64,000 nt of DNA from a virus (lineage: Duplodnaviria; Heunggongvirae; Uroviricota; Caudoviricetes; Herelleviridae). Shown here piece by piece: positions 10,889 through 55,098 of this stretch. Location of the stretch: IMG/VR virus record IMGVR_UViG_2974580128_000001; one strand, given 5' to 3'. The notes beneath the pieces were generated by a model. That model was not told the DNA's origin and searched no databases. It saw only the letters and a list, made by a program, of their open reading frames with translations. A program made the translations under genes and the position numbers. Numbering within the stretch: the stretch's first letter is position 1; the number at the start of each line of letters is the position of its first letter.

Positions 10889-12133
10889 CTATTTCGCTTT
10901 AAAATTGTAAACAGGCTTAACAATCTTTTGAATGTCTACTGTATCCTTGATTATTTCTTTGATTTCGTCAGCATCCTTGTATGCTTTTGGTGCTTCATCT
11001 AGTGTACTTTGAACAACAGATGTTGTATAAATACCAGACATTGTTTGTTTAAACTCGTCTAAGTCAAGTAATTCTTTTGCTTTAGAACGAGACAATACAC
11101 GTCCTGCTCCATGGGGTGCAGAATTATTCCAATCAGTGTTTCCTTTTCCTACACCGATGATAGAGCCTTCTTTCATGTTTAAAGGAATAACAAGTCTAAC
11201 ACCCTCCTGTGCATCTGTGGCACCTTTACGAATAGTGTTGGAATCTACATCAATATAATTATGAATAGAGTCAAATAAGTCAACTACAGTCCAACCCATG
11301 TTAGCAACAATCTTATCAATGATAGTTTTACGATTCATGTAAGCATAACGTTGTGCTAGTTGCATATCGTTTAAATAGTCATCCACTGCGGAACCTTCTA
11401 AGTATGGCAATTGTGGTTTAACATTGACAGCTTTAAAATTCTTAATAGCCTCTTGAATTTCTGACTGTCTGCCTTCTTGCTTAAGTGTTTCAATCATAGT
11501 TGCTAAACCTTTGTCATCACGTTCATGGTATAAATCCGCTTTCTTCTGGTGATATTGGGCTACTTTAAGTCCTAAAGAACGGGAACCTGTGTGAACTAAC
11601 AAGTAGTAATTGTTTTCGTCATCTTTACTTAATTCGATAAAATGATTTCCACCACCTAAAGTACCTAAAGACAAGGTAACACGTTCAATAAATGGTTCTT
11701 CTGTTGCACCTTTAAACGTCATAGATTCTAACATGTGCTTAATCGTATTCGGTACAGTAGGATGAAGTTCGTCCAAATTTTCTCTAATGTTAAACCCAGA
11801 AGGAACCACTTTGTTAATCACTGCATCCAATTTAGCCCATTCGGTATCTGTCGTGTCTTCTGGCTTTTCAATTTGAGCTACCATAATACCACAACCTACA
11901 TCTACGCCAACAATAGAGGGTACAACTCGATTGATACCATCTGGATAATGAATTGTTGTCCCAACTGTAGAACCTTTACCATAGTGTGCATCTGGCATAA
12001 TTCTAACAATGCCACCGTCTGTTACCGGTTCATTAATCATTGTTGTAACCTGACCGATAGTGCCTTCATCCACCGTGTTAATAAACATTTTCGCATCGGT
12101 ATACTTACCATTAAGTTCAATTAAGTTATTCAT
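10889..12133 (-). CDS. rtcB: RtcB-family RNA 3'-phosphate ligase
   Basis: 414 aa; GGGNHFIEL and HGAGR motifs characteristic of RtcB. Confidence 0.85.
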   Translation of the reverse strand: MNNLIELNGKYTDAKMFINTVDEGTIGQVTTMINEPVTDGGIVRIMPDAHYGKGSTVGTTIHYPDGINRVVPSIVGVDVGCGIMVAQIEKPEDTTDTEWAKLDAVINKVVPSGFNIRENLDELHPTVPNTIKHMLESMTFKGATEEPFIERVTLSLGTLGGGNHFIELSKDDENNYYLLVHTGSRSLGLKVAQYHQKKADLYHERDDKGLATMIETLKQEGRQSEIQEAIKNFKAVNVKPQLPYLEGSAVDDYLNDMQLAQRYAYMNRKTIIDKIVANMGWTVVDLFDSIHNYIDVDSNTIRKGATDAQEGVRLVIPLNMKEGSIIGVGKGNTDWNNSAPHGAGRVLSRSKAKELLDLDEFKQTMSGIYTTSVVQSTLDEAPKAYKDADEIKEIIKDTVDIQKIVKPVYNFKAK

Positions 12134-12314
12134 CAGTTTTCTCCCCCACTAATACTTTCTTCATCTTTTCATCTAGTCTCTGTATAATCTCTTGTTGTTC
12201 CTGAGCTAGCTTTGCATGGTGTTCACGCTGTTTTTTATATTTAGCATAAGCAAATAGTTCTTCTGTAGTTAGTTCTTCTAATTTACGTGTAAATGGTGTA
12301 GCTTCAAATTCCAT
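12126..12314 (-). CDS. small coiled-coil protein
   Basis: 62-aa ORF coupled to rtcB (ATG of rtcB overlaps its stop). Confidence 0.45.
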   Translation of the reverse strand: MEFEATPFTRKLEELTTEELFAYAKYKKQREHHAKLAQEQQEIIQRLDEKMKKVLVGEKTDE

Positions 12315-43310: not shown

Positions 43311-44843
43311 TTATTTAAGTGCTTCTTTTACAAAGTCGTATTCTGGTTTATTTAACACAGACAACATCATTTCTTCTGGGGAAGTAATTTCTCCGCCTAA
43401 CACTTGTGTTAAGATGTTTGTGGAGAACCCAGATACTAAAGCTGTTCCTTTTTCGTCAAAACGTACAGGTGTATTATCATGACGAGAGTTTACATTCCAG
43501 AATACTACAGATGGTAACTCGTAACCTGCCTGTTCGAACTTAAGTTTTGCTTGTTCATAGTTAGTGTAACCTGCCACACCTTGGTCAAATTCCATATCGG
43601 AAATAATAACGATTTTTGAAGGTAAATCATTTTGTGGTGTGTGGTTTTTCACCGCAGTAGATAAAATCAAGTCGAATACTTTTTGTAAATTTGTATTTCT
43701 AGCATTGTATGAACATTTATCGTAAGCTTTCATCTTATCCATAAGTGTACCTGACAATGGTAAGTTTACTAAACGAGGTTGTTCAGAAAATACGATGAAA
43801 TGACCTTTGAATGCACCACTTAAGCGTTCAGCAGTGTAGATAGCTAAACCTTCTGCAACTTCCCAAGGGGTAACATTTTCTGTACCACCCCATGTCATAG
43901 AACCAGAAGTATCCGCAACTACAATTGCATTATCTTCAATATCTTTCAACACATCGTCCATAGATTTCCATGTTGCTTCTAGTGAACGGTCTAATGTTCT
44001 GTAGTAACTTCTGCTACCATAAGCCCGAATTACTTCATGAGGTAACATGTTCTTTGCGTTCATTGTTACTTCCCCAGATTCTACTTTAGAAAGTAAATCT
44101 TCATATTCGTCTGGCATGTGTAATTGCAAAGCTTTACGGTATTTGAACAATGCTTTAGAGGATACTTGGTTCAAATCAATCTTATGGTATTCCTTGCTTG
44201 CTAACCGAACTTCAATTACATTTAAATAATCACGTAATTTAGCAATCATTTTACGATAACGAGTTAGACCTGCTTTACCTTCAAAACCTAAATAGTTAGC
44301 AATACGAGCACCTTGATTACGTTTCTTGCTATTTGGAGAACTTACATTAGCTAACCATTTACCTAGTAATGATACAGGCTCACCTTCTGACATGTTTTTA
44401 ATATCAGATGTTAGTTGGTTACCGATGATACGTGCACCTTCTGTATCCACAAAGTGAATACTACGTTTGTGTGCGTACTCCATAGTTTCAAATAAGTCTG
44501 TCCAACGACCAACATATGCCATGTACTCCATTAAAGTAACGATTACTTGCTTGTTTTGGTTACGACCATCCACTAAGTATTTGATTGCTTCTAGGTAAGC
44601 GGAACGTTCACCCAATCCACCTAAACGGATATTACGTAAGTGTACCAAATTGCGTAATGCTAACTCTGGGTTTTCATCGTAGGCTTTAGCAAACATGTTT
44701 CGTACATCTCCTAAACGACCACGCATAGCCCCTGCTTGTGCAAAGAAGTCTAAGTTAGCGTTTAAAGTTGATGTATAAGTTTTAGCTCCATTTTCTGTAG
44801 AACCAACAGTTGTTTCTTCTTTTAGGTTGTCTAAAAATGACAT
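43311..44843 (-). CDS. rsr: Ro60-like protein (Rsr ortholog: TROVE domain plus vWA/MIDAS)
   Basis: 510 aa; N-terminal TROVE-like helical region and C-terminal vWA domain with MIDAS motif DTSGSM; same architecture as bacterial Rsr. Confidence 0.7.
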   Translation of the reverse strand: MSFLDNLKEETTVGSTENGAKTYTSTLNANLDFFAQAGAMRGRLGDVRNMFAKAYDENPELALRNLVHLRNIRLGGLGERSAYLEAIKYLVDGRNQNKQVIVTLMEYMAYVGRWTDLFETMEYAHKRSIHFVDTEGARIIGNQLTSDIKNMSEGEPVSLLGKWLANVSSPNSKKRNQGARIANYLGFEGKAGLTRYRKMIAKLRDYLNVIEVRLASKEYHKIDLNQVSSKALFKYRKALQLHMPDEYEDLLSKVESGEVTMNAKNMLPHEVIRAYGSRSYYRTLDRSLEATWKSMDDVLKDIEDNAIVVADTSGSMTWGGTENVTPWEVAEGLAIYTAERLSGAFKGHFIVFSEQPRLVNLPLSGTLMDKMKAYDKCSYNARNTNLQKVFDLILSTAVKNHTPQNDLPSKIVIISDMEFDQGVAGYTNYEQAKLKFEQAGYELPSVVFWNVNSRHDNTPVRFDEKGTALVSGFSTNILTQVLGGEITSPEEMMLSVLNKPEYDFVKEALK

Positions 44844-44883
44844 CTGACATCTCTCCTTTGTATGGTAATGTTTTATCTAACAC

Positions 44884-44913
44884 CACTATAACATGTAATA
44901 TTATGTAAGTCAA
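44884..44913 (-). promoter_or_regulatory. minus-strand sigma-A-type promoter for rsr (TTGACT-18-TATAGT)
   Basis: plus text actata...aagtcaacac. Confidence 0.5.
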
Positions 44914-45029
44914 CACTTTTTGTAAATAAAAAACTCATCCGATTAAGAATGAGTTTGTATGTAATATCAAGAACCACAGGCTTAATTAAATTCAATAGTT
45001 TTAATTTGTTAGTTGATTGCTGTAGGGTT

Positions 45030-45615
45030 CTTTATGCTCTGGCAACCTAAGAGGTTAGAGCTATGGCAAAATACCAAAACCTTTTTGATATGTAACAAGA
45101 ATCTATTTTATACGTTGCTCTACCAACTGAGCTACAGGGGGAATCATCCTCCCGGCAGGACTCGAACCTGCGACCAACGGCTCCATAGGCAATAAAAATC
45201 GCTGTTAGATTCTTTATGTTCCGGCACCCATCAAGGATGGAACTATAGCTATGCTAAAACCGTTTTATTTATGTATCAAGAAGCAGTTATGCCACCAATC
45301 GGCATCCTCATAATTTGGGTTGAGAATATAGGAGTTGAACCTAAGTAAGGGTTTGCTGTATGCTTCTTTATGCTTCGGCGCCCATTAAGGGTGAAGCTAT
45401 GACCTAAGCCAAAACCGTTTTATTTATGTAACAAGAACGCATTAACTTTAAGCTTTACCAATTAAGCTATACCACCAATGGTGGCAGTTGGATTCGAACC
45501 AACAACTCACATTTTTCAGATGTATTAGTTTTAAAAGTTTGCTGTGGCGTTCTTTATGTTCCGGCTACCTGTTAGGTTGGAACTATGACATATGTCAAAA
45601 CCTTTTTATCTTGTC
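45030..45615 (-). ncRNA. three tandem circularly permuted tRNA-like modules (Y-RNA/YrlA-like tRNA mimics) separated by four copies of a ~75-nt repeat
   Basis: minus-strand order in each module is T-arm (e.g. GGTCGCAGGTTCGAGTCCTGCC), closed acceptor-like hairpin, D-arm (e.g. GTAGCTCAGTTGGTAGAGC), all bracketed by an imperfect closing stem; repeat units A 45031-45108, B 45196-45270, C 45352-45428, D 45540-45612 show compensatory changes in an internal hairpin. Confidence 0.55.
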
Positions 45616-45671
45616 TTTATAATAGCATAAACTATTCAAACTGTCAACTATTAATTTAAATATATTGAAAC

Positions 45672-45896
45672 TTATTTAAAAGCTCCAATATATTTAACAG
45701 TACCCTTGCATTTACGTGCAAAAGCTTCTAGCTCTTTACGAGCACCTAAACGGTCTGGTTGAGAAGACTGTACTGTAACTTCTTTTGGTACAGTAATTTC
45801 ACGAGTTTTCTTAACTGTCTTTCCGTTTTTTAACTTTTGTTCGTACTCTTCTGTACGAGTAGAAGTTGTTGAAATAATTCCGTAAAATTTAGACAT
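45672..45896 (-). CDS. small basic protein
   Basis: 74-aa ORF, RBS ggaggtcac. Confidence 0.5.
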   Translation of the reverse strand: MSKFYGIISTTSTRTEEYEQKLKNGKTVKKTREITVPKEVTVQSSQPDRLGARKELEAFARKCKGTVKYIGAFK

Positions 45897-45926
45897 GTTA
45901 TGTGACCTCCGGTCATTTTATTTTAA

Positions 45927-46008
45927 TGGGGAGTGATGGAGTTGCACCACCCGAGCTTTCGCAACTGATTTACAGTCAGCCCCGCTACTACTTACGGTAT
46001 AACTCCCC
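45927..46008 (-). tRNA. tRNA-Tyr(GTA) candidate, type II, atypical T-loop TGCAACT
   Basis: acceptor GGGGAGT/ACTCCCC, anticodon stem GCTGA/TCAGT with loop CTGTAAA, long variable arm. Confidence 0.35.
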
Positions 46009-46204
46009 GCATAGGTATGTATATATCAATACAATGTACAAGAACTTTTAGTGAGGTAGCTCTCATAGTGTATTAATGGGGTACATTGTGTAACTTCAAC
46101 TAGTATTGCCTCACACGTGACTAGTCTTATATACACAATGCCTACATACAACCCGATAGACCACCCTTGGTACGCATATTAAGAGGCGCAGGGTGATACG
46201 AATA

Positions 46205-46275
46205 TATGGATTGCAGGATTCGAACCCGCACCCTTTGGTTGGAAGCCAAAGATACTACCCTTATACTAAATCCAC
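46205..46275 (-). tRNA. tRNA-Gly(TCC)
   Basis: acceptor GTGGATT/AATCCAT, anticodon loop CTTCCAA, T-arm GCGGGTTCGAATCCTGC. Confidence 0.65.
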
Positions 46276-46468: not shown

Positions 46469-46547
46469 TTAACTTATACATATATTATAACACAAACTTA
46501 CATGATGTCAACAACTATTTGTAAGTTTTTTTAATTTATCCATTCGG

Positions 46548-46634
46548 GACAGTGTGCTTTAACCATTCAGCCACCCGCAGGGGTAACCCGCAGGACGGGA
46601 TTCGAACCCGTATACCACTGTCCTATTGGATAGG
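46548..46634 (-). ncRNA. fourth permuted tRNA-like module (T-arm ACGGGTTCGAATCCCGT, then D-arm-like GCTGAATGGTTAAAGC) closed by 8-bp stem GGACAGTG/CACTGTCC
   Basis: T-arm precedes D-arm on the transcribed strand; no complementary acceptor strands at the ends; outer inverted repeat at 46548-46555 and 46627-46634. Confidence 0.45.
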
Positions 46635-46789
46635 CTTGTGTACCTGTCATCTTCCGATTACACACACCTAGTCTAGTTACCGTACCAATAGATTTGACAG
46701 GAATCTAGGGTAACGCCCAATATGGTGTTAATTTACCTTGTATTCTGTTACAGGTTTGCAACCCTGAACAAGGATGACCAATCCTAATG

Positions 46790-46859
46790 ATATGCGAGGG
46801 GATTTGAACCCCTATCTACTTCATAGGTCACTTTATCCACTTAAGCTACGCATACCTAT
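46790..46859 (-). tRNA. tRNA-like gene, anticodon undetermined (short D/anticodon region)
   Basis: acceptor GTATGCG/CGCATAT and T-arm AGGGGTTCAAATCCCCT are clear; body is ~6 nt shorter than canonical. Confidence 0.35.
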
Positions 46860-48878: not shown

Positions 48879-49601
48879 ATGACACAAGGAATTTACTTAA
48901 TTACAAATATTGTTAACAATAGACACTACGTAGGACAATCAAAAGATATTGAACGTAGGTGGAACGAACACAGACATAGTACTTTTAATACTAATGCTAC
49001 TGATTACGAAACTCCCCTACACCGTGCATTTAGAAAACACGGAATGGAAAACTTCATATTTGAAATCCTAGAAGTTGTACCGAACCATTCGGAACTTAAT
49101 TCTATCGAGAACAAGTATATTGCAAAGTATAACTCTATTGGTAATGGTTACAACCAGATAATCACTTCACGCAATGGTCTTTCAAAAGAAGAAATTAATA
49201 AGAAACGTGAATTAAAATATGGTGTAACTAGAGACAAGCTTTACAATCAGCTAATGCTTGATTCTTTTAGTAAAGTCGCTAGCTACTATGGTGTATCCTC
49301 AAACGCTATTAAAAAATGGTGTAAAGACTATGACCTACCTACATCTGCTAAAGCTTATGACAATCCCGAAAAGTCTAAAAGATATAGTGAACTTATGAGA
49401 AAGTTAGCTACAGAGTCATCAACCAAAAAGAAACGAATAGCTATGATTGATAAGGACACCTCTGTTGTTATAAAAGAATTTGATTCTGTTAGAGAAGCCT
49501 CAGAATACATCGGAACTTCTACTAGTAATATAACAAGAGCAGTACATGGTTATGAGGGCAGAACCACTTCATGTGGCTACCGTTGGTCATATATAAAATA
49601 A
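48879..49601 (+). CDS. GIY-YIG homing endonuclease (free-standing, opposite strand to the tRNA array)
   Basis: N-terminal GIYLITN...YVGQS (GIY-YIG motif), conserved R and E downstream, C-terminal basic DNA-binding region; ATG 48879 after RBS aaggag. Confidence 0.75.
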   Translation: MTQGIYLITNIVNNRHYVGQSKDIERRWNEHRHSTFNTNATDYETPLHRAFRKHGMENFIFEILEVVPNHSELNSIENKYIAKYNSIGNGYNQIITSRNGLSKEEINKKRELKYGVTRDKLYNQLMLDSFSKVASYYGVSSNAIKKWCKDYDLPTSAKAYDNPEKSKRYSELMRKLATESSTKKKRIAMIDKDTSVVIKEFDSVREASEYIGTSTSNITRAVHGYEGRTTSCGYRWSYIK

Positions 49602-51691: not shown

Positions 51692-51698
51692 GAAAAAT

Positions 51699-51793
51699 AC
51701 GGAAGACAGGATTTGAACCTGCGATATAGGAGTTTTAGTGCACTCATTGTCTCCCACGGTATCCGTTGCGTATTGCCATCACGCCACTCCCGT
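51699..51793 (-). tRNA. tRNA-like gene, unassigned (possible type II)
   Basis: T-arm GCAGGTTCAAATCCTGT and 3' acceptor CTTCCGT are clear; candidate 5' acceptor ACGGGAG lies 95 nt away; anticodon arm not resolved. Confidence 0.3.
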
Positions 51794-55026: not shown

Positions 55027-55098
55027 TGCGGTAGGTGGGAGTCGAACCCACTAAAGCTTGGTTATGAGCCAAGTGCCTAAACCGTTCGGCATCTCCGC
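55027..55098 (-). tRNA. tRNA with CAT anticodon (second Met or tRNA-Ile2/lysidine type)
   Basis: anticodon stem CTTGG/CCAAG with loop CTCATAA, T-arm GTGGGTTCGACTCCCAC; acceptor has one mismatch. Confidence 0.55.

Follow-up and report, generated by a model that had tools for sequence, protein, structure and literature searches.

Ro60 proteins and Y RNAs form ribonucleoprotein particles that are known from animals, some bacteria and a few phages. The YrlA RNAs (RF02553; Salmonella, mycobacteria and some mycobacteriophages) were found next to TROVE-annotated genes in 254 bacteria and 22 phages in the study that also defined their tRNA-like domain and their GNCGAAN0-1G motif (Chen et al. 2014, PMC4201824). 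The Ro60 protein of Thermus phage phiLo binds two upstream Y-RNA-like RNAs, Yrl1 and Yrl2, and forms complexes with the host PNPase (PMC12135203). A preprint describes gp130 of Felixounavirus Bas63, a Ro60-like protein that counters Ppl defence and whose gene lies beside a tRNA block; it reports no RNA, and its authors guess that some of the neighbouring 'tRNAs' might be Y RNAs (PMC11482910). In a survey of jumbo phages, an RNA-repair platform is seen in TROVE proteins 'with a tRNA-like partner' (PMC7824862). Here we describe four tandem RNA units on the minus strand of a 64,000-nucleotide stretch of Herelleviridae DNA (IMG/VR record IMGVR_UViG_2974580128_000001; the window), directly upstream of a gene for a 510-residue protein. 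The region is probably a non-coding RNA operon that supplies Y-RNA-like partners for this protein, the phage's own Ro60-like protein.

Over the 801 bases around the array, the window and Enterococcus phage EfV12-phi1 (MH880817.1; Schiekvirus, Herelleviridae) agree with 100% identity, and positions in the window are those of that record. At least 80% of the array region is present in 28 related records. Among the features under the match in the 32 matching records no RNA gene is annotated, and the array contains no open reading frame of more than 60 amino acids. The array lies at the downstream end of a block on the minus strand that comprises 23 tRNAs, a tmRNA and a ROOL RNA. Loci compared with it are cited below by number (L003 and so on).

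Architecture of the RNA array

The predicted transcript spans approximately 690 nt of the minus strand from promoter to terminator and comprises four tandem units. From 5′ to 3′, each unit consists of a 4-bp hairpin (hp1), AUAG, a second hairpin (hp2), the 5′ strand of a helix (P1), one or two bases, the heptamer ACAGCAA, a variable module, the 3′ strand of P1, a G and UUACAU. In hp2, an outer stem of 5 bp is followed by a one-base bulge and an inner hairpin, with an NGCC bulge on the 3′ side. In P1, AAGAA+NN(N) pairs with N'N'(N')+UUCUU, giving an unbulged helix of 7–8 bp that closes across each module. The ACAGCAA motif, invariant except that it reads ACAGCGA in unit 3, is single-stranded and lies inside the stem, just 3′ of the P1 5′ strand. 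Two of the modules (units 1 and 3) are tRNA mimics of the YrlA type, one (unit 2) is degenerate and one (unit 4) is AU-rich.

Unit 1 (45433–45597; all units are on the minus strand) contains hp1 at 45586–45597, hp2 at 45558–45583, P1 formed by AAGAACGC (45547–45554) and GCGUUCUU (45433–45440), and ACAGCAA at 45539–45545. Its tRNA-like module (45441–45538) has a T arm (45487–45503), a closed acceptor (45470–45486), a D arm (45452–45467) and an extra-arm hairpin with a CUGAAAA loop (45509–45523). Unit 2 (45278–45411) contains hp1 at 45400–45411, hp2 at 45372–45397, P1 formed by AAGAAGCA (45361–45368) with UGCUUCUU (45278–45285), and ACAGCAA at 45353–45359; its degenerate module (45286–45352) comprises a T arm (45328–45344) in which four of the five stem pairs are kept, a closed acceptor with a 10-nt loop (45304–45327) and a 3-bp D arm (45291–45303). 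Unit 3 (45097–45256) contains hp1 at 45246–45256, hp2 at 45218–45243, P1 formed by AAGAAUCU (45207–45214) with AGAUUCUU (45097–45104), and ACAGCGA at 45199–45205, with a tRNA-like module (45105–45198) made up of a T arm (45155–45171), a closed acceptor (45135–45154) and a D arm (45117–45132). Unit 4 (44969–45076) contains hp1 at 45064–45076, hp2 at 45036–45061, P1 formed by AAGAACC (45026–45032) with GGUUCUU (44969–44975), and ACAGCAA at 45017–45023, and encloses a 41-nt AU-rich module (44976–45016) devoid of tRNA features. A first-pass annotation, made from the sequence alone, had counted three tRNA-like modules; these are present within the span that it covered, and unit 4, with its non-tRNA insert, lies outside those coordinates.

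Hairpins hp1 and hp2 are assigned to the 5′ side of each unit in this clade, since they precede the first unit, do not follow the last and are not found in distant relatives. The unit 4 type, in which P1 and ACAGCAA enclose a short AU-rich insert, recurs in L003, L091, L092 and L087. Unit 2 is absent as a whole from four sequenced Schiekvirus relatives, and many more records show a shortfall of approximately 155 nt, as when unit 2 is absent.

The array is preceded by a predicted promoter (45619–45647, minus strand; TTGACA, 17 nt, TATTAT) that matches 11 of 12 consensus positions, has a TG before the –10 element (extended –10) and is the best site of the region; a TTGACA promoter occupies the same place in the relatives L003, L090 and L091. 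It ends at a predicted intrinsic terminator (44924–44956, minus strand) with a 10-bp stem, a 6-nt loop and a T run. A separate predicted promoter for the Ro60-like gene follows at 44885–44913 on the same strand (TTGACT, 17 nt, TATAGT, with a TG; 10 of 12 matches). In L084 (vB_Edu_21C1) and L085 (vB_OCPT_CCS1), an extra insert after unit 4 (…GATATTATAATGACAAGTTAAATAAAAGGTGTTGCGCCCC…) replaces the terminator region of EfV12-phi1. Two short coding sequences annotated inside the RNA array of vB_Edu_21C1 are probably spurious.

Covariation in the repeated structure

A repeat search recovered four copies (45012–45064, 45194–45246, 45348–45400 and 45534–45586) with 66–74% identity over 53 nt, three of which extend to 85 nt; the copy nearest the array promoter lacks its right-hand end because the promoter occupies that position. 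Four repeats of about 75 nt had been noticed at these places in the first-pass annotation and taken for an element interleaved with the tRNA-like modules. The repeats are real, but they form no separate element: each is the constant part of a unit plus linker. Since P1 pairs across the module, a 75-nt repeat is the 3′ strand and tail of one unit followed by the hairpins and 5′ strand of the next.

Positions 6 and 7 of P1, the two after AAGAA, are paired across the module in 19 of 19 units, in six combinations (CC/GG, CG/CG, GC/GC, UC/GA, UG/CA and UG/CG). Closure of the 75-nt repeat on itself, by pairing UUCUU with AAGAA of the same copy, was rejected, with 4/12 and 7/12 paired at these positions. 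The flanking complementarity already seen between GCGTTCTT and AAGAACGC is genuine, although it had been described as a bulged stem and is a plain helix of 7–8 bp. Two further pairings were considered and discarded: an outer GGUUUU/AAAAC pairing around whole units, judged by eye, is not kept in L003 or in the last unit, and a 3-bp GUA/UAC extension below P1 is broken by an uncompensated G-to-A change in EfV12-phi1.

For hp1 and hp2, 17 distinct copies were aligned; they come from EfV12-phi1 and three sequenced relatives, from one IMG/VR contig, and from three diverged relatives in metagenomes, with Ro60-like proteins that are 63–74% identical. Across the 12 specified pairs, 98.5% of the cells are paired and 10 pairs show two-sided changes, which bears out the covariation first proposed for the inner hairpin and extends it. 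None of 500 shuffles reached the observed pairing, covariation score or two-sided-change counts, and sliding the 3′ partner by one to three columns left 26–49% of the cells paired. Twelve cells are G·U pairs that would be A·C mismatches if read on the plus strand, which identifies the minus strand as the RNA strand. The data support hp1, hp2 and P1 as a conserved RNA structure with compensatory changes. When the 691-nt transcript is folded for minimum free energy, all four P1 helices appear, together with hp2, the modules' T arms, closed acceptors and D arms, and the terminator.

If the array consisted of tandem tRNA genes in decay, or of a repeat at the DNA level made up of recombination or protein-binding sites, the adjoining tRNA block and the differing number of repeats among relatives would be accounted for with no RNA function at all. 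Such an origin is extremely improbable, as the compensatory changes keep four helices, the G·U pairs make the structure strand-specific and P1 covaries. The promoter and terminator, both on the minus strand, are conserved, and the unit 2 module is nearly identical in L003, a phage whose Ro60-like protein is 74% identical. The first-pass view of an RNA structure rather than a DNA repeat is upheld on these grounds.

tRNA-like modules

The tRNA-like modules were located by a descriptor scan written in Python and by direct reading of the minus strand. As the first-pass annotation had recognized, three segments carry a T arm, a closed hairpin and a D arm in this order, the reverse of that in a normal tRNA. 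The hairpin has 7 bp. This is the architecture of the YrlA domain, which is complete in units 1 and 3, degenerate in unit 2 and absent from unit 4. The Rfam YrlA model is the best match for two of the three modules, those of unit 3 (45086–45199; 45.2 bits, local E-value 1.7e-8) and unit 1 (45425–45532; 34.3 bits, E-value 2.4e-5), and the search returned no YrlA match for the unit 2 module or unit 4. The tRNA model (RF00005, threshold 29 bits) gave best scores of 20.1 and 19.6 bits on the array, across two modules, and ARAGORN called no tRNA in it. YrlA and tRNA were the only Rfam families matched, and no ribozyme family matched up to E = 10 in the interval 44850–46250; ribozyme, riboswitch and CRISPR readings were set aside.

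The 7-bp acceptor strands are complementary within each module (CGGGAGG/CCCCCUG, AUUCUCA/UGAGGAU and UGCCACC/GGUGGUA) and not with the neighbouring module. The reversed order is therefore real, and neither an artefact of tandem or closely spaced tRNAs nor a tRNA with an insertion. Loops of 3–10 nt close the acceptors in EfV12-phi1, and a UUCG tetraloop does so in L003. The equivalent of the anticodon stem runs into P1 and ACAGCAA.

Circularly permuted tRNA genes, in which the 3′ half precedes the 5′ half, occur in Cyanidioschyzon merolae. On this model, each module would be excised and circularized (for example by the RtcB of the phage), and would yield a functional tRNA once opened at the acceptor loop. 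The order of the halves is the same, the phage encodes RtcB and the modules lie beside a tRNA block. Yet the array differs from permuted tRNA genes in that a short loop seals the acceptor and the open end is a conserved stem resembling a protein handle. The joined ends of a module give no anticodon stem–loop and instead run into P1 and ACAGCAA. The short acceptor loops leave neither leader nor trailer for RNase P and RNase Z, nor a CCA; unit 4 keeps P1 and the motif without tRNA features; the tRNA set of the phage is already near-complete; and no bulge–helix–bulge motif of a splicing endonuclease is evident. We give this model almost no weight.

A further reversed-order tRNA-like module lies at 46533–46633 (minus strand), approximately 1 kb upstream of the array, inside the unannotated interval 46540–46800 (minus strand). 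It has a T arm (ACGGG/CCCGU), a loop-closed acceptor and a D arm, and no ACAGCAA. A perfect 8-bp closing stem (GGACAGUG/CACUGUCC), an outer stem (UAUCCA/UGGAUA) and a CGAA in an internal loop complete it, and it matches the Rfam YrlA model with 28.4 bits (local E-value 3.8e-4). This module could represent a second kind of Y-like RNA, situated within the tRNA block.

Neighbouring Ro60-like protein

The gene for the 510-residue protein (EFV12PHI1_54; 43311–44843, minus strand) starts 81 nt downstream of the array terminator, on the same strand. The protein matches the Pfam families DUF2828, DUF7788 and, weakly, VWA_2, and falls in phrog_850, labelled 'RNA-binding protein'. An AlphaFold model built from 47 homologues has a mean predicted local distance difference test score of 91.5, and the best five matches of this model in a Foldseek search of the PDB are all full-length Ro60/TROVE proteins. 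[quoted passage not shown] Judged from the predicted model, it is a homologue with the Ro60 fold whose divergence puts it beyond the reach of sequence methods.

Chen et al. sought Y RNAs within approximately 4 kb of a Ro60 orthologue and on its strand, as the array is here. A conserved terminal stem formed by paired 5′ and 3′ ends around a variable module, another mark of Y RNAs, is found in P1. The Y-RNA-type interpretation advanced at first sight is supported overall by the Ro60-fold neighbour, the closing stem and the YrlA-type modules, and by analogy the units would be bound by the protein.

Enterococcus phage EFP01 (L086; Schiekvirus) lacks the array and the Ro60-like gene except its last 50 codons, and is a natural deletion mutant. 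This joint loss is weak evidence of functional linkage because it is a single deletion of neighbouring DNA.

ACAGCAA units in other phages

A tblastn search found homologues of the 510-residue protein in 698 phage records, among them Listeria A511-like phages, Felixounavirus, Staphylococcus, Campylobacter, Vibrio, Aeromonas and Bacillus phages and mycobacteriophages, where the homologue is annotated as a 'Ro-like RNA binding protein'. A set of 80 IMG/VR loci with the protein was then compared, in which most proteins are 34–40% identical and two loci are close relatives. In 56 of the 80 loci there are tRNA genes within 4 kb, and all of these share the strand of the protein gene. That strand carries 390 copies of ACAGCAA, the opposite one 36. 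The motif is present within 1.5 kb upstream or 0.7 kb downstream of the gene in 75 loci, with at least two copies in 64, and is found 1.72 times per kb in this interval, compared with 0.21 times per kb in the outer flanks. In the window, the motif occurs in unit context in the four units only, and the minus strand of the ordinary tRNA block of EfV12-phi1 contains none.

A first test for P1 accepted any 6-bp helix, G·U included, within 200 nt; its background was 70%, and it was replaced by Watson–Crick-only thresholds with two topologies. The strand just 5′ of ACAGCAA is then helical in 61% of sites, compared with 11.5% of random sites. In arrangement A, the helix closes downstream over a variable module, as in EfV12-phi1. 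In arrangement B, it is a local hairpin, and this handle is inside a tRNA-like gene of normal order, where it replaces or adjoins the anticodon loop. By eye, on few loci, arrangement B reads as a circular permutation of arrangement A. ACAGCAA is contained in 19 of the 27 Rfam tRNA matches longer than 100 nt (15 loci).

Eight over-long, full-length Rfam tRNA matches (103–144 nt) in other phages lack ACAGCAA: L011 8039–8158; L042 937–1079; L033 8821–8964 and 6610–6739; L016 5828–5940 and 6406–6508; L036 3771–3906; and L023 3623–3737. Either a different sort of insertion in a tRNA or a variant form of the motif could explain them.

Of 102 distinct units of arrangement A that lack a T loop, 21 contain a hairpin resembling an anticodon arm (5 bp, with a 7-nt YU-NNN-R-N loop), most commonly with the triplet UUU, where shuffling predicts 1.6 ± 1.4. 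Closed-acceptor, YrlA-like modules inside P1 were found in the Enterococcus-phage clade, in L078, in mycobacteriophage Finnry, just downstream of the gene for its 'Ro-like RNA binding protein', and in Felixounavirus momo, which has three ACAGCAA units in unannotated gaps of its tRNA block, one with such a module. Under strict settings, the 80 metagenomic loci yield four distinct closed-acceptor modules in three loci; this rarity indicates that the YrlA-like topology is restricted to certain clades and is not general.

Two ways of doing without a Ro60 partnership bear on these distributions. The units might be stand-alone tRNA-mimic sponges or decoys for a host tRNA nuclease or modifying enzyme, with the Ro60-like gene a mere neighbour. 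Enrichment of tRNA-like and anticodon-arm-like modules is in keeping with this, as are the separate promoters of array and gene with a terminator between them. We nevertheless judge it unlikely, in that ACAGCAA units track the protein gene, on the same strand, in phages of Gram-positive, Gram-negative and mycobacterial hosts whose proteins are 30–40% identical, and P1 and ACAGCAA are conserved while the tRNA-like part varies, as expected for a protein-binding handle. The array might otherwise be a cis-acting leader of the Ro60-like gene, acting by attenuation or through autoregulatory sites, with no RNAs acting in trans; it lies directly upstream on the same strand, and repeated protein-binding sites before a protein's own gene are typical of autoregulation. 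This is very improbable, given the strong terminator and fresh promoter between array and gene, the position of units downstream of the gene or embedded in tRNA-like genes in other phages, and unit numbers that vary from 2 to about 10 per locus. A phage version of the Ro60/Y-RNA partnership, so far unannotated, is the most likely account of the array.

Genomic setting

An RtcB-type RNA ligase homologue is encoded at 10949–12148 (minus strand; tblastn with the 'tRNA splicing ligase' of Listeria phage AG20, 48% identity, 406 residues, E-value 9e-115), 32 kb from the array and outside the locus. In AG20, the 'tRNA splicing ligase' gene is 1.2 kb from the Ro-like gene. The Salmonella rsr-yrlBA-rtcBA operon offers a parallel. 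RtcB is a possible functional associate of the Ro60-like locus.

Other features of the window may be recorded here. A gene resembling GIY-YIG/NUMOD homing endonucleases (48879–49601, plus strand) lies on the opposite strand within the tRNA block and adjoins the tmRNA gene. A tRNA-like sequence with a GUA anticodon (45929–46006, minus strand; Tyr-like) shows, in the Rfam alignment, 11 inserted nucleotides in the variable region; at 27.7 bits it stays just below the Rfam threshold of 29, ARAGORN does not call it and GenBank has no annotation for it. The tRNA set of EfV12-phi1 has no other member for Tyr. Two sequences (51698–51793 and 55027–55098, both minus strand) are matched as tRNAs by Rfam and not by ARAGORN; one of them, at 96 nt and only 33.3 bits, may hold an insertion.

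Relation to known Y RNAs and possible roles

The array shares with YrlA its location beside a Ro60-type gene, on the strand of that gene, the closing stem formed by its ends, the order of T arm, loop-closed acceptor-like stem and D arm, the frequent presence of more than one RNA per locus and the best Rfam match. With metazoan and Deinococcus Y RNAs it shares the terminal stem and the variable internal module, as well as, for the bacterial RNAs, gene linkage to Ro60; it differs from them in having no sequence similarity, no bulged conserved helix and another motif. The phiLo RNAs are of stem–bulge–stem form with a CGAA motif, and no tRNA-like domain is described in the passages searched; binding and PNPase recruitment were shown there by experiment, whereas the EfV12-phi1 system is known from sequence and comparison (PMC12135203). 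Felixounavirus homologues of the 510-residue protein, found by tblastn, belong to the DUF2828 family, as Bas63 gp130 may. No family in Rfam 15 covers the handle of P1 and ACAGCAA, and no link between DUF2828 proteins and such RNAs was found in the literature, in a search to which subscription journals were closed, so that a prior description is possible.

Several observations weigh against a Ro60/Y-RNA partnership. The GNCGAAN0-1G motif of YrlA is absent from the minus-strand unit sequences, in which ACAGCAA or ACAGCGA stands instead, and the two YrlA matches, at 45 and 34 bits, are below the gathering score of 69 bits. P1 is short and unbulged, simpler than the bulged Ro-binding helix of classical Y RNAs, and the array further departs from YrlA in placing four units between one promoter and one terminator, in carrying two extra hairpins per unit, and in one unit without a tRNA-like domain. 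Hairpins hp1 and hp2 are missing from distant relatives. The neighbour is a DUF2828-type protein in place of a Pfam TROVE protein: Pfam TROVE gave no match to it, phmmer and profile searches with it did not reach Ro60 among PDB sequences, and its kinship with Ro60 is one of fold alone. Array and gene each have a promoter of their own. Folding of the whole transcript gives a z-score of just –1.84 (20 shuffles). The aligned copies are paralogues and close relatives and hence less independent than the covariation counts suggest; even so, the slid controls and the variety of pair types speak for a real structure.

The partnership could work as follows. The Ro60-like protein would recognize the constant part of each unit, that is P1 and ACAGCAA and possibly hp2; the analogy is with YrlA, its conserved stem and its GNCGAA motif. 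The variable module would be the effector end, presenting a surface shaped like a tRNA or an anticodon arm to a tRNA-binding partner. The ribonucleoprotein might then tether the ring to a host exoribonuclease or another tRNA-handling enzyme, as in Rsr/YrlA/PNPase (Chen et al. 2014) and in the Ro60/Yrl/PNPase complexes of phiLo (PMC12135203). In the established precedent, Ro60 is tethered to PNPase and structured RNA is degraded. It may act in quality control or repair of the large tRNA set of the phage, or as a decoy or adaptor against tRNA-directed host defences. With RtcB encoded by the phage and the ligase gene close to the Ro-like gene in AG20, surveillance or repair of tRNAs is plausible by analogy, as is decoying of defence nucleases directed at tRNAs.

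More tentatively, hundreds of phages of Firmicutes, Actinobacteria and Proteobacteria may share a large RNA family to which the four units belong and whose members, marked by the ACAGCAA motif, are partners of phage Ro60 homologues of the DUF2828 type; we regard this as possible and less probable than not. In such a family, one handle, the helix with ACAGCAA, appears to be joined to interchangeable tRNA mimics in two circularly permuted topologies: one with the handle open and the acceptor closed, the other with the handle closed by a small loop and standing in place of the anticodon loop of an otherwise normal tRNA-like gene, as in the 19 over-long Rfam tRNA matches (of 27) with the motif. 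Some units appear to have anticodon-arm mimics only, UUU (Lys) being the commonest.

For Schiekvirus, Enterococcus phages of the type used in therapy, the proposed operon means that four Y-RNA-like units have gone unannotated beside a Ro60-fold protein that databases list under a domain of unknown function. The pairing of ACAGCAA with an adjacent covarying stem is a searchable signature that marks candidate partner RNAs in many of the phages sampled, including Listeria phage AG20, a Felixounavirus and a mycobacteriophage. Annotations would change accordingly, as some phages have spurious small open reading frames called within the array, and 'tRNAs' of excessive length in other phages are probably Ro partners. 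If the units do belong to a large family, the ribonucleoprotein would be a programmable tRNA-mimic platform that repairs, protects or decoys tRNAs attacked by host anticodon nucleases, and would explain mechanistically how a Ro60-like phage protein produces the anti-defence phenotype reported for it.

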